Source: Deltaproteobacteria bacterium (GTDB lineage Bacteria; Myxococcota; XYA12-FULL-58-9). From it: a stretch of 17,880 nucleotides of DNA. The stretch lies in assembly GCA_041309305.1 (NCBI GenBank), contig JBFYZW010000069.1, positions 1 through 17,880 on the forward strand, given 5' to 3'. Under the pieces are notes generated by a model. The model was not told the origin of the DNA and searched no databases. It saw nothing but the letters and a program-made list of their open reading frames with translations. Shown one piece after another: positions 3,962 through 17,880 of this stretch (position 1 is the stretch's first letter; the number at the start of each line of letters is the position of its first letter). The translations under genes were made by a program, and so were the position numbers.

Positions 3962-4473
3962 TGAGCGGCGCGCCGCTCGATGCGCTGGTGGTCTTCGGTT
4001 GTCGGGTGATCGACGGCCGTCCGTCGCCGGCGTTGGTGCGGCGCCTCGTGCGCGCCGCGGCGGCGGCCGGCGAGTATCCGGCGGCGGTGCTCGTCTTGTC
4101 GGGGGGCGACGCGCATGGCGTCGCCGAGGCCGAGGTGATGCGCGACGATCTGGTCGCCCGGGGTGTGGCGCCGGCGCGGCTGCGCTGCGAGCGGCAGGCG
4201 CGCTCCACCGCGGAGAACGCCGCGCGGGTCGTGCCCATCCTCGCCGAGCTCGGCGCGCGGCGGATCGGCTTGGTCACCGATCCCTATCACGTGCGCCGCA
4301 GCGCCGTGCTCCTGCGCGCCGCGGCGCGCCGGGCTGGACTCGGCGGGCTCACGGTCGTGCCGCTGCCGGCGGTCGAGAGCAAGTCGACGTTGGCCCGGCT
4401 CGGCTTGTGGATTGAGGAGAGCGTGAAGCTGGCGGTGTCGCTGGTGCGCGGGCCGCCTACAACCTCTGCTTGA
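3961..4473 (+). CDS. DUF218 / YdcF-ElyC-SanA family protein
   Basis: [16 protein letters not shown]...[44 protein letters not shown] matches the DUF218 core (SGG ... EA..M ... GV ... E..S.sT.ENA). ATG at 3961 overlaps the upstream stop, indicating translational coupling. Confidence 0.75.
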
Positions 4474-5494
4474 GGTAGAAGTCGACCATCTCGGCCTTGC
4501 TGCGCGCCTTGATCTTGCTCGCCTGCCCGGCCTGGCCGAAGGCGATCATCCGCTCCTTGCACACCTGCTTCATCGCCTCGCGCGCCGGCTTCATGTAGTC
4601 GCGCGGGTCGAACTTCTCCGGCGTCTCGGCGAGGACCTTGCGGATCGCGCCGGTGATCGCCAGCCGGTTGTCGGTGTCGACGTTGATCTTGCGTACGCCG
4701 TGCTTGATGCCCCGCTGGATCTGCTCGAGCGGCACGCCGAAGGTCGGCTTCAGTTTGCCGCCGTACTTGTTGATCACGTCCTGCAGCTCTTGCGGCACCG
4801 ACGACGAGCCGTGCATCACCAGGTGGGTGTTGGGCAGACGCTTGTGGATCTGTTCGATCACGCTCATCACCAGCACGTCGCCGGTGGGCTTCTTCGAGAA
4901 CTTGTAGGCGCCGTGCGAGGTGCCGATTGCCACCGCCAGCGCGTCGACCTTGGTGTCGGCGACGAACTGCTCGGCCTGCGCCGGATCGGTCAGGTGCTCC
5001 TTGGCCTGGTCGGCCGAGAGGCCGGCGCCGTGGCCGTCCTCGATGCCGCCGAGCGTGCCGAGCTCGCCCTCGACGGTGACGCCAAAGGCGTGGGCGACGT
5101 CGACCACCTCGCGCGTGACCTTGACGTTGTAGTCGTAGCTCGAGGGGGTCTTGCCGTCAGCCTCGAGCGAGCCGTCCATCATCACCGAGGTGAAGCCCTG
5201 CTCGATGGCCGAGAAGCAGGTCTGCGGGCTGTTGCCGTGGTCCTGGTGCATCGCGATCGGCAAACGCGGGTGCAGCTCGGCGGCGGCGAGCATCAGGTGC
5301 TTGAGGTAGGCGTCGTTGGTGAACTGGCGTGCGCCGCGCGACGCCTGGATGATCACCGGCGAGTCGGTCTCCTCGGCCGCCGCCATGATCGCCTGGATCT
5401 GCTCCATGTTGTTGACGTTCAGCGCCGCCACGCCGTAGCCGTTCTCGGCCGCGTGATCGAGCAGGACGCGCATCGGGATGAGAGGCATGGGCAA
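4457..5494 (-). CDS. fba: Fructose-1,6-bisphosphate aldolase, class II (cyanobacterial/CbbA-like subtype)
   Basis: 345 aa, near-collinear with class II FBAs: [30 protein letters not shown]..., [63 protein letters not shown] on the minus strand at 5501-5506, before ATG 5494. Confidence 0.96.
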
Positions 5495-5603
5495 CTCCTT
5501 CTGGCTGAGTCGTCAGGGGTCTTTGGTGGGGCTCAATGTACGACTCCGGGGCGGTCAGGGGAAGGCCTTGCCGGGGCGCGGCCGCGCGTGGTACGCGGTG
5601 GGG

Positions 5604-5954
5604 ATGCTGCAGCGCAAGGAGACGCCGGTCTGGGATCGCCGCCGGTTCGTCCGCCGGCAGTTCATCCAGACCGTCGATGTGCGCTCGTCGACGCGGCCGC
5701 CGCTGAGCGGGCGGAGCCGCGACCTCAGCCTCGGCGGCATCCGCCTGACCTTGACGCAGCCGCTCAGCCCCGGCGAGCAGGTCAACGTCGGGTTGTCGTT
5801 CCCGAGCGAGCTGCGCGTCGCCTTCGACGCCGAGGTGCGCAACATCGACCATGACGCGCCGGCCGAGGCGTACGTCGCCGGGCTGCGCTGGCTGTCACCG
5901 GCGGAGGAGGACGTGGAGATCTTGCGCTACCTGCTCGAGGACAGCGCCGCCTGA
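5604..5954 (+). CDS. PilZ-domain protein (putative c-di-GMP receptor)
   Basis: RRRFVRRQF (RxxxR-type) and DLSLGGIRL (D-x-S-x-G-G) PilZ signature motifs, about 116 aa. The first in-frame ATG not overlapping the divergent fba start is 5604. Track ORF start 5478 would overlap fba. Confidence 0.65.
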   Translation: MLQRKETPVWDRRRFVRRQFIQTVDVRSSTRPPLSGRSRDLSLGGIRLTLTQPLSPGEQVNVGLSFPSELRVAFDAEVRNIDHDAPAEAYVAGLRWLSPAEEDVEILRYLLEDSAA

Positions 5955-5973
5955 GCGTCGGAACGCGCCCGTG

Positions 5974-6180
5974 CTAGGACACCGGGCGGACGGCCTGCGC
6001 GTGCGGGCCGTGGGCGCCGGGGATGCTCTCGAACTCGACCAGCTGCCCTTCGTGCAGCGTGCGCTCGCCGTCGTGATCGAGCGCGCTGGCGCGCACCAGC
6101 ACGTCGTCGCCGCCGTCGAGCGGCGCGATCATGCCGAAGCCCTTGCGTGGGTTGAACCACTTCACCGTGCCGGTCGCCAT
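5974..6180 (-). CDS. cspA: Cold-shock protein, CspA family
   Basis: MATGTVKWFNPRKGFGMI... (RNP1-like KGFGFI motif), 68 aa. ATG at 6180 with GGAGGG 8 nt upstream on the minus strand. The track ORF extends to 6234 but the conserved N-terminus begins at M(6180). Confidence 0.9.
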   Translation of the reverse strand: MATGTVKWFNPRKGFGMIAPLDGGDDVLVRASALDHDGERTLHEGQLVEFESIPGAHGPHAQAVRPVS

Positions 6181-6275
6181 GCCTGTCAGCCCTCCGAGCC
6201 GCCCGTCGAGCAACGGGCAGCGTGACGATCGCACGGCCGATCGGTCGGTTCAAGGGCCAACTGCCCGGCTCGGTG

Positions 6276-7889
6276 TCAGCGCTGCTGCTGCGGCGGCGGC
6301 GGAGCCTTCGGCGTCGGCTTGGGCGGCTGCCACGAGCCGGTGCCGGTCTGGCCGTTGCCCTCGGGCGTGGCGATCTGCCCCAGGTACCCGGGCAGCTCGA
6401 CGCCGGCCATCTGCGCGACGTCGTGGATCGGCGGCAGGCTCTTGATCAGCGACGAGACGAAGTTCGCGGTCGACGAGCCGGTGCCGGCGGCGGCGGCGCT
6501 GTCCCAGACGGTGACCTTGTCGATCTTGAGGTTCTGGATCGCCTCGACCTGACGGGCGACGATCGCCTCGATCTTCTCGACCATCAGCAAGGTCGCCGCG
6601 GCGCGGGCGTCGCCGGCGCAGCTCTGCACCAGCGACTGGTAGCCGTGCGCCTTGGCCTCGAGCACCTGCTTGATGCCCTTGGCCTCGGCCTCGTACTTCA
6701 TCAGGATCGCGTCCGCCGCGCCGGCGGCGACGCGCCGTTGGCGCTCGGCCTCGGCGGCGGCGTCGATCTCGATCTTCTTCTTGTCGATCTCCTTGCGCAC
6801 CACCTCGGCGGCGTTGAGCCGCTCCTGCTCGGCGCGGGCCTGCGCCTTCTGGATCTCGACCTCGGCCTCGCGCTTGGCCACCTCGGCGCGGCGGGCGGCG
6901 TCGGCCTGTTTGACCGCGAGGACGGCGTTATAGTCGGCGACGCTGGCGCGCGACTCGTTCTCGCCCTTGATCGCCAGCGACTCCTGGTTCCAGACGTAGA
7001 CCCGCTGGTCGGCCTCGGCCGCCTTCTTGCCCTTCTCCGCCGCGGCCAGGTTCTCGGCGACGCGGATCTCCTGGGTCTTGGTCGCCTCGGCCTCGCCGAT
7101 GCGGGCCCCGGACTCCTGCTGCTGGACGAAGATGCGCCGGTCGGCCTCGGCCGCCTTCTTGCCCTTCTCACCCTGGGCGACGTTCTCGGCGACCTTGATC
7201 TCCATCTCGCGCACCGCCGAGGCCTGGCCGATCTCGCCGAGCTTCATCTGCTCGGCGACGTCGATCTTGGCCTTGTTGATCGCCTCGGCCGCCGCCTTCT
7301 TGCCGATCGACTCGATGTAGGTCGACTCGTCGGTGATGTCGGTGATGTTGACGTTGATCAGGTTCAGGCCGATCTTGTTCAGCTCCGGCTCGACGTTCTT
7401 GCGGATGGCGGCGAGGAACGACTCGCGGTCCTGGTTGATCTGCTCGATGGTCAGCGACGCGACGGTGAGGCGCAGCTGGCCGAAGATGATCTCGCGGGCC
7501 ATGCTCTCGATCTCGCCGACCGTGAGCTCCAGCAGGCGCTCGGCGGCGTTCTGCATCACCCCGGGCTCGGGGCTGATGCCGACGGTGAAGGTCGAGGGGA
7601 CGTTGATGCGGATGTTCTGCAGCGACAGGGCGTTCTGCAGCGGGATGGGGATGGTGATCGGCGTCAGCGACATGTAGCGGTAGTCTTGGATGAGCGGCAG
7701 AACCAAGACGCCACCGCCGTGGATGCAGCGCGCCGCCTGACCGCCGGAGACCTTGCCGAAGACGACCAGGATCTTGTCCGACGGGCAGCGCTTGTAGCGG
7801 CTGGCCAGGTAGAGGAGCATGAAGACGACGAAGATGACCGCCGCGCCGATGGCGACGATCCAGATCGACGTGACCTCTCTCGACAGCAT
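6276..7889 (-). CDS. floT: Flotillin-like protein (SPFH/band-7 domain, FloT/YuaG-like)
   Basis: 537 aa. An N-terminal TM helix is followed by an SPFH domain, a long Ala/Glu/Lys-rich coiled-coil (EA repeats) and a Pro-rich tail. RBS AAAGGA 5-6 nt before ATG 7889, 27 nt after the nfeD stop. Confidence 0.9.
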   Translation of the reverse strand: MLSREVTSIWIVAIGAAVIFVVFMLLYLASRYKRCPSDKILVVFGKVSGGQAARCIHGGGVLVLPLIQDYRYMSLTPITIPIPLQNALSLQNIRINVPSTFTVGISPEPGVMQNAAERLLELTVGEIESMAREIIFGQLRLTVASLTIEQINQDRESFLAAIRKNVEPELNKIGLNLINVNITDITDESTYIESIGKKAAAEAINKAKIDVAEQMKLGEIGQASAVREMEIKVAENVAQGEKGKKAAEADRRIFVQQQESGARIGEAEATKTQEIRVAENLAAAEKGKKAAEADQRVYVWNQESLAIKGENESRASVADYNAVLAVKQADAARRAEVAKREAEVEIQKAQARAEQERLNAAEVVRKEIDKKKIEIDAAAEAERQRRVAAGAADAILMKYEAEAKGIKQVLEAKAHGYQSLVQSCAGDARAAATLLMVEKIEAIVARQVEAIQNLKIDKVTVWDSAAAAGTGSSTANFVSSLIKSLPPIHDVAQMAGVELPGYLGQIATPEGNGQTGTGSWQPPKPTPKAPPPPQQQR

Positions 7890-7916
7890 GGCTCGTCCTT
7901 TCTGTGGCGACCGTGT

Positions 7917-8555
7917 TTAGAGCGGCTTGACGACCAGCACGTTGCCGTCGGTGAGGCTCACCACCTTCACCCGCGCGTCGCTGGATATCTCACTCTTGTC
8001 CTCGGCGGTGGCGTCGAGCACCTTCAGGTAGCCCTGCACCATCACCCGCACCTTGCCGATCTGCCCGGCCGGGATCTTGAGGTAGACTGTCCCGTCCTGG
8101 CCGATGGCGGCGCGCAGGTCGACGTTGCCGGCCGCCTGCATGCCGGAGAAGAAGCGGAATAGCCGATCGACCACCCAGACGAGCCCGAGCCCGGCCACCG
8201 AGCCGCCGATGAGCGCGGTCAAGGCGCCCGACTGTCCGCGGCTGAGCGCCAGGCCGACCAGGCCGAACATCATGAAGAAGCCGGTCAGCCCCTGGAAGGA
8301 GAGGAGCTTGAAGCTCATCATCTCGTGCACCGACGCGGCGTCGCCGTGGTCAACGTGGCCGCCGCCGTCGTCGGCGTGGCCGCCGCCGTGGTCAGCGTGG
8401 CCGCCGCCGTCGACGCCGTGGTCGCCACCGCCCTCGTCGCCGCCCATGCCGACGAAGGCCATCACCAGCCGGATGGCGAACAGGCCGCCGCCGACCGCCG
8501 CGGCGCCGAAGAAGATCTTCTCGAGCACCGACAGACTCTCGAGCCAAGGCATCAT
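7917..8555 (-). CDS. NfeD/YuaF-like membrane protein (C-terminal OB-fold) with His/Asp/Gly-rich repeat loop
   Basis: 212 aa with three TM helices, then a C-terminal beta-rich segment DGTVYLKIPAGQIGKVRVMVQGYLKVLDA...VKVVSLTDGNVLVVKP typical of the NfeD OB-fold. It sits immediately upstream of flotillin, the conserved yuaF-floT order. GGAGAGGGGG RBS before ATGATG at 8555. Confidence 0.8.
   Translation of the reverse strand: MMPWLESLSVLEKIFFGAAAVGGGLFAIRLVMAFVGMGGDEGGGDHGVDGGGHADHGGGHADDGGGHVDHGDAASVHEMMSFKLLSFQGLTGFFMMFGLVGLALSRGQSGALTALIGGSVAGLGLVWVVDRLFRFFSGMQAAGNVDLRAAIGQDGTVYLKIPAGQIGKVRVMVQGYLKVLDATAEDKSEISSDARVKVVSLTDGNVLVVKPL
8334..8438 (-). repeat. Tandem 21-nt repeats (5 units, 4 well conserved) inside nfeD, encoding a (G)H-x-D-x-G-G heptad loop
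   Basis: Plus-strand units GTGGCCGCCGCCGT[C/G]G[T/A]C[G/A]GC repeat at 8355, 8376, 8397 and 8418, with a degenerate copy at 8334. Translated on the minus strand: DEGGGDH / GVDGGGH / ADHGGGH / ADDGGGH / VDHGDAA. Confidence 0.85.
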
Positions 8556-8639
8556 CGTCGACCCCCTCTCCGAGCGACCGAGGCTTATCGCGCCAGCCGG
8601 GACAACAGCAACCAGCGCCCCGCTTTCGCCGCTATCTGT

Positions 8640-8727
8640 GTTCTAGTGTGTATGGTTACATAATATTACACACCATGTCAACACAAATCATTTTTCCTGT
8701 CCCTCACGGGGCGCATCATTATATAGA
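8640..8727. promoter_or_regulatory. AT-rich (about 35% GC) intergenic island with inverted repeat GTGTGTA-N14-TACACAC; likely divergent promoter/operator for the nfeD-floT operon and the RHH gene
   Basis: The only AT-rich stretch in a roughly 70% GC window. IR arms at 8646-8652 and 8667-8673 flank a central TAATATTA palindrome (8661-8668). TATATA at 8720-8725 lies only 8 nt before ATG 8734. CATAAT at 8659-8664. Confidence 0.5.
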
Positions 8728-8733
8728 GTGCGC

Positions 8734-9069
8734 ATGAGTGCACGCGAGACGAAGCCGAAGAGCCCGTACCGTCGCGTCAACATCATGATCCGCGAGGATC
8801 AACACGAGGCGCTCAACGCGCGCGGTCTGAACGTCTCGGGGCTGATCCGCGACCTGCTCGGCGACTACCTGTCGCAGAACGTCATCCACCTGCAGGTCGG
8901 CGAGGAGACGCGGCGCATCTACGACCTGGTGGTTGCCAACACTGGCTCGTCCGACCGGGAGATCGAGACCCACCTGCGCACCGCGCTGGCGAAGGTGCTC
9001 GAGGACAAGATCGCCGAGATGCAGAAGCTGCACCAGAAGCTGGTGCGCGAGGGCGCGCACCGCGCCTGA
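8734..9069 (+). CDS. Ribbon-helix-helix (CopG/Arc/MetJ-like) DNA-binding protein with a C-terminal helical extension
   Basis: [33 protein letters not shown] fits the RHH beta-strand/helix-helix pattern. 112 aa from ATG 8734, with an alternative in-frame GTG at 8728. The stop is 11 nt before the pgm ATG, with GGAGGAGG between them. Confidence 0.65.
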
Positions 9070-9080
9070 CGGAGGAGGCG

Positions 9081-10733
9081 ATGCCGTTGCACCCTGGAGC
9101 CGGTCGTCCGGCGCCGCGCGAGAGCCTGGTCAACGTCCCGCGCCTGGTCAGCGCCTACTACGCTTACGCCCCCGACCCGGAGCGCGCCGAGCAGCGGGTG
9201 AGCTTCGGCACTTCCGGGCACCGCGGCTCGGCCTTGAAGGCCTCCTTCAACGAGGCGCACATCCTCGCCATCACCCAGGCGATCTGCGACCACCGGCGCG
9301 CGCACGGCGTCGACGGCCCGCTGTTCGTCGGCAAGGATACCCACGCCCTCTCGGAGCCGGCCTTTGTCACCGCCCTTGAGGTGCTGGCTGGCAACGCGGT
9401 TGAGGTGTGCATCGACGCGGCCGACGGCTACACGCCGACGCCGGTCATCTCGCACGCCATCCTGACCCACAACCGCAACCGGCGGGCGCACCTCGCCGAC
9501 GGCGTCGTCATCACGCCGTCGCACAACCCGCCCGAGGATGGCGGCTTCAAGTACAACCCGCCGCACGGGGGCCCGGCCGACACCGCGCTGACCCGGGAGA
9601 TCGAGCAGGCGGCCAACGCCCTGCTCGCCGACGGCAACCGCGCGGTGCGCCGCGTCCCGTGGGCGCGTGCCCTCACCGCGCCCTCGACGCGGCGGTACGA
9701 CTACGTCACGCCCTACGTCACCGACCTCTCGGCGGTCATCGACCTCGAGGCGATCCGCGCCGCGAAGTTGAAGATCGGCGCCGATCCGATGGGCGGCTCC
9801 GGCATCGCCTACTGGCGGCCGCTGGCCGAGCGCTTCGGCCTCGAGATCGAGGTGGTCAACCAGGTGGTCGACCCGACCTTCTCGTTCATGACCCTCGACA
9901 GGGACGGCAAGATCCGCATGGACTGCTCGTCGCCCTACGCGATGCAGAGCCTGATCGCCCTTGGCGACCGCTTCGACATCGCCTTCGGCAACGACACCGA
10001 CTACGACCGCCACGGCATCGTCACCCGCTCGCGCGGGCTGCTCAACCCGAACGCCTACCTGGCGGTGGCCATCTGGTATCTGTTCCAGCACCGCCCCGGC
10101 TGGGGTGAGCGGCCGGCGGTGGGCAAGACGCTGGTCTCGAGCTCCCTCATCGACCGGGTCGCCGCGGCGCTCGGCCGCCGGCTGTGCGAGGTGCCGGTGG
10201 GCTTCAAGTGGTTCGTCGAGGGCCTGGGCGATGGTTCGCTCGGCTTCGGCGGCGAGGAGAGCGCCGGCGCCTCGTTTCTGCGCCGCGACGGCACCGTGTG
10301 GACCACCGACAAGGACGGGATCATCCTCGACCTGTGCGCCGCCGAGATCTGCGCCGTGCTGGGCAGAGATCCGGGCGAGGTCTACGGCGAGCTCGTCGCC
10401 CGCTTCGGCGAGTCGTGCTACGAGCGGCTCGACGCGCCGGCGAGCGGGGCGCAGAAGAAGGTGCTCGCCTCGCTGTCGCCCGCGCAGGTGACCGCGACGA
10501 CGCTGGCCGGCGAGCCGATCACCGCCAAGCTGACCCGCGCGCCGGGCAACGACGCGCCGTTGGGCGGGCTGAAGGTGACGACCGCGAACGGCTGGTTCGC
10601 CGCCCGGCCGTCCGGCACCGAGGATGTCTACAAGATCTACCTCGAGAGCTTCCGCGGCCCCGAGCACCTCGCCCAGCTCAAGGAGGAGGCCCAGGCGCTC
10701 GTCGCCCGCACCTTCGCCGCCGCCGGCGCCTGA
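9081..10733 (+). CDS. pgm: Phosphoglucomutase (alpha-D-glucose-1,6-bisphosphate-dependent)
   Basis: 550 aa collinear with E. coli Pgm: [10 protein letters not shown] active-site Ser loop, [48 protein letters not shown]. Confidence 0.97.
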
Positions 10734-10784
10734 CCCTTGTCGCCGGCCCGCCGGTGCTCATATTCCAATGCGGAGGAGCTCGCC

Positions 10785-12020
10785 GTGCTGGGGCCGATGT
10801 TCACCGCCTTCGTCGCCGAATTGTGGGCGATCACGCTCGAGCTGGCCTGGCCGCTGTTGCTCGGCCTCTTGCTCGCCGGCCTCCTGCACGTGCTGTTGCC
10901 CACCGCCTTCGTGCGCCAGCAGCTCTCCCGCCCGACCTTCGGCAGCGTGCTGCGCGCGGTGCTCATCGGCGTGCCGTTGCCCTTGTGCTCCTGCGGCGTC
11001 GTGCCGACCGCGATCGGCCTCAAGCAGCAGGGCGCGTCGCGCGGCGCGGCGACCGGCTTCCTCATCAGCACGCCGCAGACCGGCGTCGACTCGGTGCTGG
11101 TCAGCGCCACCTTCCTCGGCTGGCCGTTCGCGCTGTTCAAGGTGGCTGCCGCGGCGCTCACCGGCCTCATTGGCGGCGCGCTGGTCAACCGCCTCGAGCG
11201 CGGCGCGCCGGCGCCGGCGCCGGCGGAGCAGGAGCTGGTCGCCGCGCCCCGACGCCACCCGCTCGAGGTCGTGCGCTACGCGGTCTTTGATCTCCTGGCG
11301 ATGATCGACCTGTGGCTAGTGGTCGGGGTCGGTTTCGCGGCGTTGCTCGGCGTGCTGCTCCCGGACGACTTCTTCGCCCGCCACGCCTGGACCCAGGGGC
11401 TCGGCGGTATGCTGCTCGTTTTGGTCATCGCCTTGCCCCTCTACGTCTGCACCACCAGCTCGGTGCCGATCGCCGCGTCGCTCATCGCCGCCGGGATGCC
11501 GGCCGGCGCGGCGCTGGTCTTCTTGATGGCCGGGCCGGCGACCAACGTCGCGACCCTCGGCGCGGTCTGGCGTGGCCTCGGTGGCCGGGTGCTCGCGGTC
11601 TACCTCGGCACCGTGACGGTGATGAGCCTCGGCCTCGGCTGGCTGTTCGACTTCGTGCTCGCCGGCGCGCGCGCACCGCACCACCTGCACGCGCACGGCG
11701 CCTCGTGGCTCGAGCAGGGCAGCGCGGCCCTTCTGGTGGCGCTGCTCGCCTTTCTGCTCGGACGCCGTCTTTGGCTGCGGCTGCGGTCGGCCGCGCCTTT
11801 GACCCAGGAGAGCGCGATGGATCTGACCCTCAAGGTCGACGGGATGACCTGCCAGCACTGCGTCGCCAACGTCAAGCGGGCGCTCGAGGCGGTCGACAAG
11901 GTCGCGGCCGCGGAGCCGGACCTGGCGACCGGGCGGGTCGTCGTGCGCGGCGAGCAGCCCGAGGTGGCCAAGTTGATCGCCGCGGTCGAGGCGGCCGGCT
12001 ACCGCGCCGCCGCCGGGTGA
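10785..12020 (+). CDS. ArsP-type permease (PF03773/DUF318) with conserved CSC motif, fused to a C-terminal heavy-metal-associated (HMA) domain
   Basis: Two-repeat polytopic membrane protein. PLPLCSCGVVP resembles the TPFCSCS motif of the ArsP organoarsenical efflux permease. The C-terminal DGMTCQHCVANVKRALEAV carries the GMTCxxC HMA metal-binding motif. Start chosen at in-frame GTG 10785 (GGAGGAG at 10772-10778, 6-nt spacer). The first in-frame start codon after the upstream stop is at 10737, immediately after the pgm stop. Confidence 0.8.
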   Translation: MLGPMFTAFVAELWAITLELAWPLLLGLLLAGLLHVLLPTAFVRQQLSRPTFGSVLRAVLIGVPLPLCSCGVVPTAIGLKQQGASRGAATGFLISTPQTGVDSVLVSATFLGWPFALFKVAAAALTGLIGGALVNRLERGAPAPAPAEQELVAAPRRHPLEVVRYAVFDLLAMIDLWLVVGVGFAALLGVLLPDDFFARHAWTQGLGGMLLVLVIALPLYVCTTSSVPIAASLIAAGMPAGAALVFLMAGPATNVATLGAVWRGLGGRVLAVYLGTVTVMSLGLGWLFDFVLAGARAPHHLHAHGASWLEQGSAALLVALLAFLLGRRLWLRLRSAAPLTQESAMDLTLKVDGMTCQHCVANVKRALEAVDKVAAAEPDLATGRVVVRGEQPEVAKLIAAVEAAGYRAAAG

Positions 12021-13981: not shown

Positions 13982-14989
13982 ATGAGGTCGACCGTTCATG
14001 CCGCCGCCGCCCTGACCGCCCTGGTGTTGGGCTGTACCAACGGCACGCCGGCGCGCGATTGCCCGCCCGGCTCGGTGTTCGTCAGCGACCGCTGCGTGGT
14101 CATCTGCGCCCACGATCTCGACTGCGGCGAGGGCGAGATCTGCGCCGAGGGGCTGTGCGCCGCCGGGGTGCGCGCCGCGCCGCGCATCACCGCCGTCGAC
14201 GGGGACGGCGAGGGGCTGTGCCCCGACGCGCCCGGGACGCACTGCGTCGCCGGTGGGCTGTGGGTCAGCGGCGAGAACCTCGACGGCGGGCTGTTCGCGC
14301 TCGCGGTCGACGGTGGCGCGCGGACCGAGCTGTCGGTCCTGGCCCGCGAGGGCGGCCGGGCCCGCGTCGGGCCGATCGCGCCGGCGACCTTCCCGACCGG
14401 CGACTACGTGCTGACCGTGACCAACGCCGCCGGCAGCGCCGACCAGGGGGTGACCTTCCTGCAGGGGCCGCCCGGGCCCGACATGACCGCCGACGAGCTG
14501 ATCGTCCACATCAACACCGGCGCGGCGACGATCGCCTTCGCCCGGTTGGCCAATGTCGCGCCGCTCGCTCATACGCACGGCGCGAGCGACCTCGATCTGC
14601 CCGGGCTGTGCGCGGCCTTGTGCACCGGACCGTGTCAGAGCTGCTCGGCCGCGGGGGCGTGTCTGGCGCTCGACGACCGGGCGCAGCACGGCTGCACCGA
14701 CGGCTTCGTCTGCGTGCGCGGCGAGTGCGAGCAGCGGGTGATGATCCTGGTCAACGAGCTGGCCGGCACCTGTGACGCGCTGTGCGCGCTGCACGCCGGC
14801 GGCCGGCCGTGCGTCGACGTCGGCATCGACGAGGCGGGGACCAACGACCAGAGCATGGCCGCCGGGCCCGCCTCGTGCCAGACCTACGCCGCGCAGTGCA
14901 GCACCGCGATGGCCTGGGACGGGCTCGCCGGTCCGACCTGCACGCACCACCGCTACGGCAACTGGACCAACTGCCGCTGCTCGTTCTGA
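13982..14989 (+). CDS. Cysteine-rich secreted lipoprotein with IPT/TIG-like Ig domain
   Basis: ATG 13982 preceded by GAGGAGGGG. N-terminus MRSTVHAAAALTALVLGCTNG has the LVLGC lipobox. About 30 Cys in CxxGxC-like arrays (DCGEGEICAEGLC; CTGPCQSCSAAGAC; CVRGECE). The central PRITAVDG...GDYVLTVTNAAGSADQGVTFLQGP resembles an IPT/TIG domain. Ends CRCSF. Confidence 0.65.
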   Translation: MRSTVHAAAALTALVLGCTNGTPARDCPPGSVFVSDRCVVICAHDLDCGEGEICAEGLCAAGVRAAPRITAVDGDGEGLCPDAPGTHCVAGGLWVSGENLDGGLFALAVDGGARTELSVLAREGGRARVGPIAPATFPTGDYVLTVTNAAGSADQGVTFLQGPPGPDMTADELIVHINTGAATIAFARLANVAPLAHTHGASDLDLPGLCAALCTGPCQSCSAAGACLALDDRAQHGCTDGFVCVRGECEQRVMILVNELAGTCDALCALHAGGRPCVDVGIDEAGTNDQSMAAGPASCQTYAAQCSTAMAWDGLAGPTCTHHRYGNWTNCRCSF

Positions 14990-17880
14990 CGCCGCCGCCG
15001 ACCGGCGAGCAGTGCGACGACGGCCAGCAGCGGCGCGCCGCCGGTGCGACAGCCGCAGCCGCCGACCAGCGCGGTGGGGTCGGCCCCCGGCGGCGGCGGC
15101 AACGCCTCGACGTCGGCGGTGACCAGGCGCGAGCGGGCGAGCACGGTGCCGGCGGCGTCGAGCGCGACGACGCCGTAGCGGTGCGCGCCGAGGCTCGGCG
15201 GGATGTCGACGACGCTGCGCTCCGCGCCGCGCGAAACGAAGCGGCCGTCGCGCCACAGCGCGTAGGCCGACGGGGCGGGCACGTCGAGCGGGGCGGCCCA
15301 GGTGAGCTGCACGCCGCCGCCGGCAGCCGCCGCGGCCTGCAGCGCGAAGCGGCGCGGGTAGTAGGCGGTGTTGCGCGCGTCGTGGCGGGCGCGGCTCCAC
15401 TCGCTGGTCAATGGGTCGTAGGTGCCAGCGAGGTCCCAGCCGTAGACCTGCCAGCGCAGGTCCGACCCGCCGACGAACAGGTCGACGTCGCCGTCGCCGT
15501 CCAGGTCGGTGAGCGCCGCTGAGGAGCCCGAGCCGCCGTCCAGGTGGCGCGGGAAGTCCGCGAGCGGTGTGCCGTCGGCCGCCCAGGCGTAGACCAGCCC
15601 GTCGGTGCAGCTGGTAACCAGGTCGACGCCGCCGTCGCCGTCGAGGTCGCCGGCGGCGACGGCGGCCCAGATCTCGCCGCCGGTGCTCTGCGGCCAGCCG
15701 GCGAGCGGCGCGCCGTTGGAGCGCCAGACGCGCACCTCGCCGTTCTTCAAGCCGAGGATCACCTCGGGCCGCTCGTCATTGTCGAGGTCGGCGAGGCTCA
15801 CGCGGTTGTACTGCGAGTCGGGGAGCGGCTGTGGCCAACCGGGCAGCACCGTGCCGTCGAAGCGGACCAGCTCGACCGCGGTGCGTTGCACCGAGACCAG
15901 CTCGACCTGGCCGTCGCCGTCCAGGTCACCGGCGGCGCCGTCGCCGAAGCCGCCGCTCACCGGGCGCGGCCAGCCGGGGGCGAGCGTGCCGTCGGCGAAG
16001 AAGAGGTACTCCTGCGTGCTCGTGCCGACGAAGATCTCCTCGACGCGATCGCCGTCCAGGTCGGCGACCACCGGCGAGGCGCGGGCGCCGCTGCTCAGCG
16101 TCTGCGGCCAGCCGTCGATCGCCTGGCCGTCCTGGTCGAGGAGGTGGAGCGTCGCCTCGGTGGCGTCGTCGTCGGCGGCGACGATCGCCCAGCCGCCGCC
16201 GGGAGCGAGCGGTGCGACCACCGCGGCGCCGGAGGTGCGGCCGAGCGCGGCCGCCCAGCGGCGGGTCTCCCAGTCGTCGTGCTCCCACAGATAGACCGCG
16301 CCGCCGCCGCCGTCGTCGTGCGCGGTGACGACGATCTCGACGTCGCCGTTGCCGTCGAGATCGGCGAGCGCCGGCATGTGCGGCAGGCGCTCGTTCATCC
16401 ACAACGGCGCGAACCAGACCGGCGCGCCGGCGGCCGTCCAGGCGTGCAGGAAGTGCTCGGTGTCGGCGACCAGGAGCTCGAGGCGCCCATCGCCGTCCAG
16501 GTCGCCGAAGGTCGGTGAGCTGTGCACCGCGCCGAAGGCGCCGGTCGGGAAGCCGGGGTAGAACGGCGGGCCGTGGTAGACGCGCACCGTGCTCTCGACG
16601 TTCTCGGCGCCGCGGGTCGCGGCCAGGCGCAGCTCGACCGGCCCGAAGGGCACGCCAGCGAGCGTGAGCGTGCCGAGCGCGCCGTCGATCACCGCCGCGC
16701 CGCTGGCGAAGTCGGTCCAGCCGCCACCGGCCGGGCGGTAGGCGAGCGTGTAGCCGTCGCCGTTGGCCAGGCCGACCACCGTGACCGTGGGCTGGCCGAC
16801 GACGCTGCCGTCCTCGGGCAGGCGCACGCTGGCGTGCAGCGGCGCGGCAGCGCCGGTCAGCGCCCGGCCGAGGTTGACGCGGGTGTAGCCAACGAAGCGA
16901 TCGGTGGCCAGCCGATCGCCGGAGACGAGGATCGCGGCGCGCAGCTCGGCGGCGGTCCAGGTCGGGTGGACGGCGCGCAGCAGCCCGGCCAGGCCGGTGA
17001 CATACGGCGCGGCGAACGAGGTGCCGCTGACCTGCACGATCTGGTCACCGTTGTTCGCGGTGACCAGACCCTCGCCCGGGGCGGCGACGTCGAGCCAGGC
17101 GCCGGCGTTGGAGAAGCCAGAGCGCTGGTCGCTGTCGTTGACCGAGCCGACGCCGAGCACCGTACCGTTGGCCGCCGGGAAGGACGGGGTCATCACCCCG
17201 TCGTTGCCGGCCGAGGCGACGACGACGACCTCGGCCGTCTCGGCGCGGGCCAGCGCCTCGCCGACCAGGCTGTCGTCGCCGAAGACCTGCGGCAGGTAGA
17301 TGCCGAAGCTCAGGTTGAGGACGTGGGCGCCGTTGTCGACCGCGTAGTCGATCGCCTCGGCGACCTGGACGCTGGAGTAGACCAGGCGCAGCGGCATCAA
17401 CGCCGCGCTCCACATCACCCCGGCGCCGCCGGCGCCGTTGTTGGCCGCCGCAGCGATCACGCCGGCGACGCGGGTCTCGTGATCGCCGCCGCTCGGATCG
17501 GCGTCGTCGTTCTGGAAGTCCCAGCCGCCGAGGTCATCGACGTAGCCGTTGCCGTCGTCGTCGACGCCGTTGCCGGCGGTCTCGCCGGCGTTGTGCCACA
17601 GGTTCGGGGCGAGCTCGGGGTGGTCGAGTTGGATGCCGGAGCCGAGCACGGCGATGACGACCGCGTCGCTGCCGGTCGAGACGTCCCAGGCGAGCTCGGC
17701 GCCGGTGAGCTGGTGCGCGGTCTGGTCGGCGTAGAACGGATCGCTCGGCGCCGCGCTGGCGGTGTAGGCGAAGTTGGGTTGAGCGGCGCGCACCCCGGGC
17801 AATGTGGCGGCGCGGCGGGCGGCGGCGAAAGGCGACAGCGGTCCGCGGTAGCGCAGCAGGCGCCAGCGGGAGATCGGAAG
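14953..17880 (-). CDS. Subtilisin-like (S8) domain with substituted catalytic Asp and His, fused to a 7-blade FG-GAP beta-propeller and a MYXO-CTERM-like sorting tail (5' partial at window edge)
   Basis: The frame stays open to the window end (upstream ...LLRYRGPLSPFAAARRAATL...). The first in-frame start codon in the window is TTG at 17802, so the N-terminus probably lies beyond the window. S8 motifs: AVVIAVLGSGIQLDHPEL, where Gly sits at the Asp32 position and the DNA reads GGC; GNGVDDDGNGYVDDLGGWDF, the Ca-site; GGDHETRVAG, where Arg sits at the His64 position and the codon is CGC; ASAGNDG, Asn retained; GTSFAAPYVTG, Ser retained. Seven DLDGDG-type FG-GAP repeats fall at about 15480-16510. 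The tail GGCGCRTGGAPLLAVVALLAGRRRR has a Gly/Cys motif, a hydrophobic helix and an Arg cluster. Confidence 0.85.
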   Translation of the reverse strand, partial: LPISRWRLLRYRGPLSPFAAARRAATLPGVRAAQPNFAYTASAAPSDPFYADQTAHQLTGAELAWDVSTGSDAVVIAVLGSGIQLDHPELAPNLWHNAGETAGNGVDDDGNGYVDDLGGWDFQNDDADPSGGDHETRVAGVIAAAANNGAGGAGVMWSAALMPLRLVYSSVQVAEAIDYAVDNGAHVLNLSFGIYLPQVFGDDSLVGEALARAETAEVVVVASAGNDGVMTPSFPAANGTVLGVGSVNDSDQRSGFSNAGAWLDVAAPGEGLVTANNGDQIVQVSGTSFAAPYVTGLAGLLRAVHPTWTAAELRAAILVSGDRLATDRFVGYTRVNLGRALTGAAAPLHASVRLPEDGSVVGQPTVTVVGLANGDGYTLAYRPAGGGWTDFASGAAVIDGALGTLTLAGVPFGPVELRLAATRGAENVESTVRVYHGPPFYPGFPTGAFGAVHSSPTFGDLDGDGRLELLVADTEHFLHAWTAAGAPVWFAPLWMNERLPHMPALADLDGNGDVEIVVTAHDDGGGGAVYLWEHDDWETRRWAAALGRTSGAAVVAPLAPGGGWAIVAADDDATEATLHLLDQDGQAIDGWPQTLSSGARASPVVADLDGDRVEEIFVGTSTQEYLFFADGTLAPGWPRPVSGGFGDGAAGDLDGDGQVELVSVQRTAVELVRFDGTVLPGWPQPLPDSQYNRVSLADLDNDERPEVILGLKNGEVRVWRSNGAPLAGWPQSTGGEIWAAVAAGDLDGDGGVDLVTSCTDGLVYAWAADGTPLADFPRHLDGGSGSSAALTDLDGDGDVDLFVGGSDLRWQVYGWDLAGTYDPLTSEWSRARHDARNTAYYPRRFALQAAAAAGGGVQLTWAAPLDVPAPSAYALWRDGRFVSRGAERSVVDIPPSLGAHRYGVVALDAAGTVLARSRLVTADVEALPPPPGADPTALVGGCGCRTGGAPLLAVVALLAGRRRRQNEQRQLVQLP

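Follow-up and report, generated by a model that had tools for sequence, protein, structure and literature searches.

The SPFH2/NfeD2 operons described as a class by Hinderhofer et al. pair a flotillin with a small membrane partner; these operons co-evolve, and the NfeD architecture that has been described joins N-terminal transmembrane (TM) helices to a C-terminal OB-fold (PMC2636767). The locus studied here belongs to this class. In B. subtilis, YuaF (NfeD2) and YuaG/FloT show the same arrangement as our pair, with a short NfeD-type protein (N-terminal TM helices, C-terminal OB-fold) encoded directly upstream of the flotillin (PMC2636767). However, the similarity in sequence is marginal (E 0.12 for our profile against 2k14), the YuaF structure in the PDB is that of the soluble domain only, and the NfeD literature that we searched describes no Asp/His repeat loop for YuaF, unlike the protein reported here. 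In E. coli, the YqiJ–YqiK pair has a partner of nearly the same length (209 versus 212 amino acids) followed by the flotillin, with a gap of 26-27 nt in these operons and flotillins that are 23% identical (E 7e-15). The loop between TM1 and TM2 of YqiJ is, like ours, free of Lys and Arg, and carries a D-A-H...D motif that is at least 90% conserved in the YqiJ family. But in YqiJ this loop is short and its sequence conserved, in contrast to our expanded hypervariable repeat, and the two partners have no detectable homology (hhalign probability 2.8%): YqiJ matches YqiJ_N (PF21001) at 1e-15 and YqiJ_OB (PF07290) at 1.7e-14, whereas neither our protein nor any of 73 relatives matches either family, which is why we do not file the protein under YqiJ. 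A third partner, E. coli YbbJ, is encoded with an SPFH protein, and the QmcA–YbbJ cage (PDB 8z5g), built of 26 heterodimers, faces the cytoplasm according to PMC13086221 and PMC12478178. YbbJ differs from our protein in that its own partner is stomatin-type (SPFH1) rather than flotillin-type, identity is only 13%, and its 148 amino acids are too few to hold a long acidic loop. What distinguishes our locus from characterized YuaF, YqiJ and YbbJ is the expanded, hypervariable Asp/His loop.

Segments that look like this loop occur outside the NfeD family. Hpn, HypB, the tails of SlyD and the loops of ZIP, CDF and RcnA proteins carry low-complexity stretches enriched in His and Asp, some of them in a loop between TM helices, and in this respect may resemble our loop. 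Set against these His-rich metal segments, our loop is only 16% His, has no His runs and no Cys, and belongs to a family in which His is dispensable (24% of loops have none) and the conserved rule is Asp-richness together with the absence of Lys and Arg. The family loops also resemble DxDxDG/RTX-type Ca2+-binding repeats, which are likewise short, rich in Gly and Asp, and place Asp at alternating positions. Our own loop, however, holds no GGxGxD or DxDxDG signature and no (Dx)3 run, period and unit vary across its family, and no beta-roll or EF-like fold is predicted.

The window, by which we mean the whole analyzed stretch of 17,880 nt, contains the following features of the locus:

7917..8555 (stop codon included), minus strand: NfeD-like (NfeD2-type) flotillin-partner gene, an ATG-to-stop open reading frame of 212 amino acids
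8445..8528, minus strand: TM helix 1, residues 10-37, an AlphaFold2 helix with the near-invariant Arg29 toward its loop end
8337..8444, minus strand: disordered Asp/His/Gly loop between TM1 and TM2, residues 38-73, with no secondary structure in the model, a net charge of about -10 and no Lys or Arg
8342..8430 (near-identical core units at 8346-8408), minus strand: imperfect 21-nt (heptad) tandem array found by TRF
8238..8336, minus strand: helix 2, residues 74-106, an AlphaFold2 helix made of the amphipathic entry SFKLLSFQGLT and TM2 (FFMMFGLVGLA)
8130..8225, minus strand: helix 3, residues 111-142, an AlphaFold2 helix comprising TM3 and a basic juxtamembrane extension
7923..8096, minus strand: C-terminal five-stranded beta-barrel of the AlphaFold2 model (OB-fold, NfeD partner-binding domain), residues 154-211
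6276..7889, minus strand: flotillin (SPFH2-type), the operon partner, 537 amino acids (Pfam Band_7 3.8e-29, Flot 2.5e-6)
8556..8727, no strand assigned: AT-rich divergent intergenic region with TTGACA and nested inverted repeats, the presumed promoter/operator, recognized by composition and inverted repeats

We first establish what the protein is. Its architecture consists of a short acidic N-tail, TM1, the disordered loop, a TM2–TM3 helical hairpin and, at the C-terminus, an OB-fold. AlphaFold2, run on the family alignment, gives a model (mean pLDDT 84) with three helices and a beta-barrel, so that both the three-helix N-terminal membrane anchor, a feature of the NfeD family, and the C-terminal OB-fold required of that family (PF01957) are present. 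In a Foldseek comparison with the PDB, the model matches best to three NfeD domains, those of YuaF from B. subtilis (2k14, E 1e-5), 1510-C from P. horikoshii (3wwv) and MTH693, and it superposes on full-length YbbJ (8z5g_B). Against Pfam NfeD our protein scores 18.2 bits (E 0.0029), below the gathering score of 29.1, with the match in the right place (residues 149-211); among 73 aligned relatives, 51 match the same family at E<=0.01, the best at 6.3e-8. Despite the sub-threshold score of the protein itself, the matches of its relatives, the model and the Foldseek results together settle the NfeD assignment. NCBIfam holds no family that matches the protein. The only meaningful match in a sequence-profile search of the PDB is YuaF, at the E 0.12 given above; the top matches in that search, designed 'Bagel' beta-propeller proteins, are spurious and involve only a 22-residue motif (AIGQDGTVY). 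At least 215 full-length homologues are conserved on both sides of the loop. Arg29 is kept in at least 90% of 73 sequences, and helix 2 is the most conserved stretch of the family, with S81, F82, L85, S86, Q88, G89, T91, F93, F94, M96, F97, G98 and G101 invariant or nearly so. The gene encodes an ordinary NfeD2-type membrane partner of a bacterial flotillin.

The genetic arrangement bears this out. The flotillin gene lies on the same strand, 27 nt downstream of the NfeD-like gene; its product matches NCBIfam FloT only in part and far below the cut-off. We find a flotillin gene directly downstream and on the same strand in 79 of 80 related loci from species-representative genomes, whose phyla include Myxococcota, Planctomycetota, Chloroflexota, Verrucomicrobiota, Acidobacteriota, Lentisphaerota and Bacillota; at the sole exception the sequence ends 23 nt after the NfeD-like gene. 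A preliminary description of this DNA had taken the two genes for a conserved unit, and both the predicted structure and this synteny confirm it. By analogy with characterized NfeD proteins, the protein would be expected to bind the adjacent flotillin physically. Elsewhere in the window, at 10737-12020 and 2.2 kb from the operon, is an ArsP-type permease with an HMA domain.

We now turn to the loop, which we delimited between TM1 and TM2 in 240 family members drawn from 120 word-index hits and 150 representatives of an exhaustive HMMER search. The family is large: with a threshold of E<=1e-30 the search counts at least 899 clusters at 50% identity, and with E<=1e-3 it counts 5,477; the loop-bearing subfamily, taken as those at least 899 clusters, spans Planctomycetota, Myxococcota, Chloroflexota, Verrucomicrobiota, Acidobacteriota and other phyla. 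Every one of the 240 relatives has an Asp-rich, low-complexity loop without Lys or Arg at this position. Loop length ranges from 8 to 69 amino acids (median about 31; 20 to 72 under our first delimitation) and the sequence itself is unconserved, yet the composition is not free to vary. Lys, Arg and Trp are completely missing from the 7,690 loop residues but make up 4.5%, 3.9% and 1.1% of the rest of the same proteins. Asp accounts for 29.6% of loop residues against 2.7% elsewhere, while Glu falls from 4.0% to 2.3%, giving an Asp:Glu ratio of 12.9 rather than 0.67; His is enriched tenfold (8.5% versus 0.8%) and Gly rises from 12.0% to 17.1%. The Asp residues are also regularly spaced: given an Asp at position i, the probability of another is 0.02 at i+1, 0.39-0.42 at i+2, i+4 and i+6, and 0.19-0.23 at the odd offsets. 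This corresponds to a D-x-D-x-D pattern in which x is mostly V, A, G, F, S, T or I; DxDxDG occurs in 33 of 119 family loops and (Dx)3 or longer in 62 of 119. The TM1–TM2 loop is a hallmark of the family, a disordered polyanion that is hypervariable in sequence and variable in length but held to strict compositional rules. In our own protein the AlphaFold2 pLDDT drops below 50 at residues 46-62 and 66-71, although this disorder may simply reflect missing alignment signal. Our search of the full-text literature on NfeD structure and the acidic loop found no description of it, and the family feature is apparently undescribed so far.

Where does the loop of our protein fall within this distribution? 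Its 41 residues include 8 Asp, 2 Glu, 7 His and 14 Gly, which places it 9th of 241 in His count, 19th in His fraction and 3rd in Gly fraction, with Asp on the low side. Since it lacks the D-x-D-x-D run that is usual in the family, it may not behave like a typical member. Across loci, loop Gly increases with the GC content of the locus (rho 0.40, p 3e-4) and so, weakly, does His (rho 0.28), while Asp, Ile, Met and Phe become rarer. The window, at 72% GC, is the highest of the loci compared, and the Gly-rich flavor of its loop is therefore largely compositional. The preliminary description had called such a loop unusual for a flotillin partner. This does not hold: the same kind of loop is found in all 240 relatives, and 21 of 241 loops carry seven or more His. 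The whole family shares a floppy, Asp-rich loop without Lys or Arg; the one in the window is a GC-rich local form of it and probably not a special metal-binding or phase-variable device.

Taking these observations together, the best joint explanation, to which we assign a probability of roughly 0.6, is that the protein is an NfeD2-type partner of the downstream flotillin whose hallmark disordered loop faces the cytoplasm. Because only composition and spacing are conserved, the loop would most plausibly act in bulk. Judging from characterized NfeD proteins, the OB-fold would dock on the cytoplasmic coiled-coil or SPFH part of the flotillin and aid its oligomerization, with the TM helices located in the patch of membrane surrounded by the flotillin assembly. 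On the cytoplasmic face, inside or beneath this assembly, the loop would be suspended away from the anionic membrane, which would repel it. There it could serve as a tethered brush of carboxylates and imidazoles, providing low-affinity, high-capacity coordination of cations or a strongly negative local field, with no specific folded metal site and no switch. Asp might hold Mg2+ and Ca2+, and copies rich in His, ours among them, might bind borderline metals as well. In the lineage of our copy, a 21-nt unit coding for GGGH-x-D-(H/D) was expanded or homogenized, and the extreme GC content (72%) pushes the loop toward Gly. The bias of Asp over Glu, the enrichment of His and the D-x-D spacing lead us to prefer a brush that coordinates cations over a generic acidic spacer, a tentative choice that we hold at somewhat less than even odds.

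A more specific possibility, and the one that the preliminary description had raised, is that the His/Asp heptads are a dedicated segment for binding or storing Ni, Zn, Cu or Co, coupling the flotillin microdomain to metal homeostasis. Several observations invite this idea. Over 44 amino acids the loop has 7 His and 10 acidic residues, including HADH and HVDH motifs; across the family His is enriched tenfold and Asp far exceeds Glu; the corresponding position in the E. coli YqiJ family holds a conserved D-A-H motif; the ArsP-type permease with its HMA domain lies 2.2 kb away; and a sentence in one review (PMC13086221) connects SPFH proteins with the metabolism of ions or metals. We nevertheless regard a specific transition-metal site as unlikely. 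With no His at all in 58 of 241 loops (24%) and a median His content of 8%, His is not essential for whatever function the loops share, and part of its variation weakly tracks GC content. The loop of our protein has no HHH run and no Cys, and if it is cytoplasmic it is exposed to extremely low concentrations of free transition metals. In the neighborhoods of the operon on four diverse long contigs of relatives, no metal-related gene recurs and nothing apart from the flotillin hints at function, and in the window the permease is separated from the operon by a phosphoglucomutase gene and by its opposite orientation, so its presence is probably coincidental. It is equally doubtful that the loop is a genuine multivalent cation- or metal-binding module of a very large, uncharacterized subfamily of flotillin partners, with the D-A-H of YqiJ as its minimal form. 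Were this so, dozens of loops gathered under one flotillin assembly would make the microdomain respond to cations or pH, or let it buffer metal locally; each lineage would adjust the capacity by gaining or losing repeats, and the His-rich heptads of our protein would be a variant leaning toward transition metals.

The distribution of charge allows us to ask on which side of the membrane the loop is found. In 73 aligned sequences, the N-tail has on average 0.08 Lys/Arg and a net charge of -1.8, the loop has none and a net charge of -10.7, loop 2 has 1.1, and the 20 residues after TM3 have a mean of 2.7; two near-invariant positions flank the loop, R29 within TM1 and K/R83 at the TM2 entry. The flotillin has a single TM segment followed by SRYKR. 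Among homologues, the NfeD OB-fold of S. aureus is cytosolic and binds the flotillin coiled-coil (FloA–NfeD; PMC11222466), and the cage of QmcA and YbbJ extends into the cytoplasm, according to a citation in PMC13086221. With charges placed in this way and a flotillin oriented toward the cytoplasm, the most consistent predicted topology has the N-terminus out, the loop in, loop 2 out and the OB-fold in. In the opposite arrangement the loop would be periplasmic, and its acidity and lack of Lys and Arg would mainly reflect the translocation of the hairpin, driven by the proton motive force or YidC (negative-outside), with or without periplasmic binding of Ca2+ or Mg2+. The complete absence of Lys and Arg from 7,690 residues is what one would expect of a translocated loop under the positive-inside rule, and loop 2 does carry about 1.1 such residues. 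With three TM helices, however, this arrangement would leave the OB-fold on the periplasmic side, remote from a flotillin whose TM segment is followed by SRYKR and whose homologues are cytoplasmic (PMC11222466; PMC13086221). Also against it are the 2.7 Lys/Arg after TM3 and an N-tail almost devoid of positive charge, and the constraints of translocation leave the excess of Asp over Glu, the period-2 spacing and the His enrichment unexplained. We consider a periplasmic loop quite unlikely.

We next examine the repeat itself. The preliminary description had quoted the peptide GDEGGGDHGVDGGGHADHGGGHADDGGGHVDHGDAASVHE as encoded by four to five perfect copies of a 21-nt unit. The peptide is found at residues 39-78, between predicted TM helices 1 and 2, and the 21-nt repeat exists, but the number of copies was overstated (three good units and one diverged) and the repetition is not perfect at the DNA level: TRF reports 83% matches at period 21 (4.2 copies, score 115) and 89% at period 42 (score 143). 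In heptad register the array reads GMGGDEG / GGDHGVD / GGGHADH / GGGHADD / GGGHVDH / GDAASVH. The core units GGGHADH, GGGHADD and GGGHVDH have 18-20 of 21 nt in common, GGDHGVD shares 15-17 of 21 with these three, and the two outer units, GMGGDEG and GDAASVH, share only 9-13 of 21. The array is the strongest tandem repeat of the 17.9-kb window, and its 53 of 63 matches at lag 21 were reached in none of 5,000 shuffles of the loop's own codons, which shows the repeat to be genuine.

How does such an array arise? Compared among relatives, as the preliminary description had proposed, the loop is universal (all 240) while its unit, period and copy number vary. TRF finds tandem repeats in the loop-coding DNA of 17 of 63 relatives, with periods of 9-63 nt that are all multiples of three and with different units, so the loop turns over by in-frame duplication on an evolutionary timescale. 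The array of a Myxococcales metagenome-assembled genome, with at least six ADVGHAG heptads and a score of 224, is stronger than ours. The closest relative (P0002; 79% identical in amino acids, 83% in nucleotides) also has a 21-nt period (score 68) with diverged units, so the heptad array predates the split between the two. Between this relative and the window we find indels of seven and four amino acids, and identity is 23 of 35 in the loop versus 146 of 170 elsewhere. After the split the array was partly homogenized or re-expanded in the lineage of the window, and loops of this family evolve by in-frame tandem duplication and decay.

Another reading of the array is a contingency locus, at which slipped-strand mispairing often changes the number of 21-nt copies and so produces phase or antigenic-type variation of the loop, and the preliminary description had indeed considered the loop phase-variable. 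A tandem repeat does exist, whole-heptad indels separate relatives, and repeats with different units recur across the family. The classical signature, a long run of identical short repeats that shifts the reading frame or promoter spacing when its copy number changes, is nevertheless missing here, where a 21-nt in-frame unit lies within the coding sequence. Because the unit is a multiple of three, no on/off frameshift can result; only three units are near-identical (18-20 of 21); and a second NCBI contig (GCA_041309345.1, JBFYZV010000076.1), from an assembly that may not be independent, shows 100% identity to the window across 1,639 nt, array included, and so gives no sign of copy-number heterogeneity. 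The variation that we do see lies between lineages at 79% identity, an evolutionary rather than a population timescale, and a loop that is probably cytoplasmic would not be exposed to immune or phage selection. Phase variation at this locus is highly improbable. Finally, the notion that the repeat is an assembly error, or the open reading frame a chance frame in DNA of 72% GC with many spurious long frames on both strands, is effectively already refuted by the at least 215 full-length homologues conserved on either side of the loop, by the identical second contig, by an array of 89 nt that is shorter than a typical short read, and by the homologous 21-nt array of the closest relative. We treat two antisense frames on the plus strand that run over the repeat (8104-8646 and 8325-8663) as spurious and GC-driven.

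The locus is, in short, an ordinary NfeD–flotillin pair, and its repeat is the lineage-specific version of a family trait. At the level of the family the loop is of modest interest, since all measured members are under unusually strict compositional selection. The loop offers a defined, mutable handle on what NfeD proteins do for flotillins (by charge reversal, deletion or swapping), for which the conserved D-A-H motif of E. coli YqiJ would be a tractable starting point.

Upstream of the pair, on the far side of the intergenic region, is a divergent gene for a 113-amino-acid RHH-like protein (8728-9069). We considered it as a dedicated regulator and rejected it as a conserved partner because it is absent from all 80 related loci. 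A scan of 5900-8800 for sigma-70 promoters and terminators was uninformative, with no promoter match and one terminator-like site that falls inside a coding sequence. The intergenic region itself (8556..8727) has a GC content of 44-45% in a window of 72%. It contains the inverted repeat GTGTGTA-N14-TACACAC at 8646-8673, nested within a second one at 8634-8642/8680-8688, and its identity to the corresponding upstream stretch in the closest relative is 81%.

Across the NfeD-like family, conservation peaks not in the OB-fold, the C-terminal beta-barrel, but at the entry to the second transmembrane segment (TM2), SFKLLSFQGLTAFFMMFGLVGLA (residues 74-106; window 8238-8336). Here, immediately after the hypervariable His/Asp/Gly-rich loop, we find the near-invariant polar residues S81, S86, Q88 and T91. 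The TM2 entry may serve in function or in contacts with other proteins or parts.

The loop has a counterpart in a Myxococcales MAG (L037, CAZGVR010000526.1, ~32-748), where the orthologous loop carries at least six ADVGHAG heptads and is reported by TRF with a period of 63, 2.0 copies, 93% matches and a score of 224. This His-containing heptad expansion is larger and cleaner than that of the window, and its repeat unit differs. The window itself holds another short-period repeat, near the N-terminus of a 949-aa subtilase/FG-GAP-repeat ORF (14953-17802, minus strand):

17545-17593, second tandem repeat with a 21-nt period (score 61), comprising 2.3 copies at 82% matches

The sole basic-leaning low-complexity segment of the NfeD-like/flotillin pair is the flotillin C-terminus (window 6276-6350), a Pro/Gln/Thr-rich tail, …GQTGTGSWQPPKPTPKAPPPPQQQR. 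A low-complexity C-terminal region has been described for S. aureus FloA, to which this tail might be related.

The operon is bordered by the following features:

8556-8727, divergent intergenic region upstream of the operon, AT-rich, with TTGACA and nested inverted repeats
8728-9069, plus strand, 113-aa ORF oriented divergently to the operon; its N-terminus weakly resembles CcdA/ribbon-helix-helix proteins
5974-6234, minus strand, cold-shock domain protein gene (CSD, 1.8e-18)

The GC content of the intergenic region is 44-45%, against 72%. Within it, the inverted repeat GTGTGTA-N14-TACACAC (8646-8673) is nested between outer arms at 8634-8642 and 8680-8688, and the upstream region in the closest relative (L082) is 81% identical, TGTGTA/TACACA motifs included. 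The TTGACA hexamer is present, and we found no sigma-70 consensus in the region. Conserved operator or promoter function is possible for this region.

The 113-aa ORF is also called on a second NCBI contig (JBFYZV010000076.1), and its CcdA/ribbon-helix-helix-like Pfam match (E 0.0087) falls below the cut-off. Because none of the 80 related loci carries a homologue, we rule it out as a conserved operon partner. On the other side, the cold-shock gene begins 41 nt 3' of the flotillin stop on the shared strand; this gap holds no terminator-like site, and the gene may be co-transcribed with the operon.

In the contigs of one relative (L086/L087), the NfeD-like/flotillin pair is preceded, at a distance of ~0.9 kb, by a PspA/IM30 membrane-stress gene (4441-5139); we did not see this gene in the three other neighbourhoods examined.

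Three further genes of the window deserve comment:

10737-12020, plus strand, fusion of an ArsP_1-type permease with a heavy-metal-associated (HMA) domain at the C-terminus, TTG start
5478-5954, plus strand, PilZ-domain protein ORF (1.7e-12)
4457-5494, minus strand, class-II fructose-bisphosphate aldolase gene (9e-96)

The permease starts 4 nt past a phosphoglucomutase gene (9081-10733), and we judge the proximity of this metal-related gene to the His-rich NfeD loop a coincidence. The PilZ ORF overlaps the start of the divergent aldolase gene by 17 nt, and one of the two start codons was probably mis-set in the mechanical ORF call.
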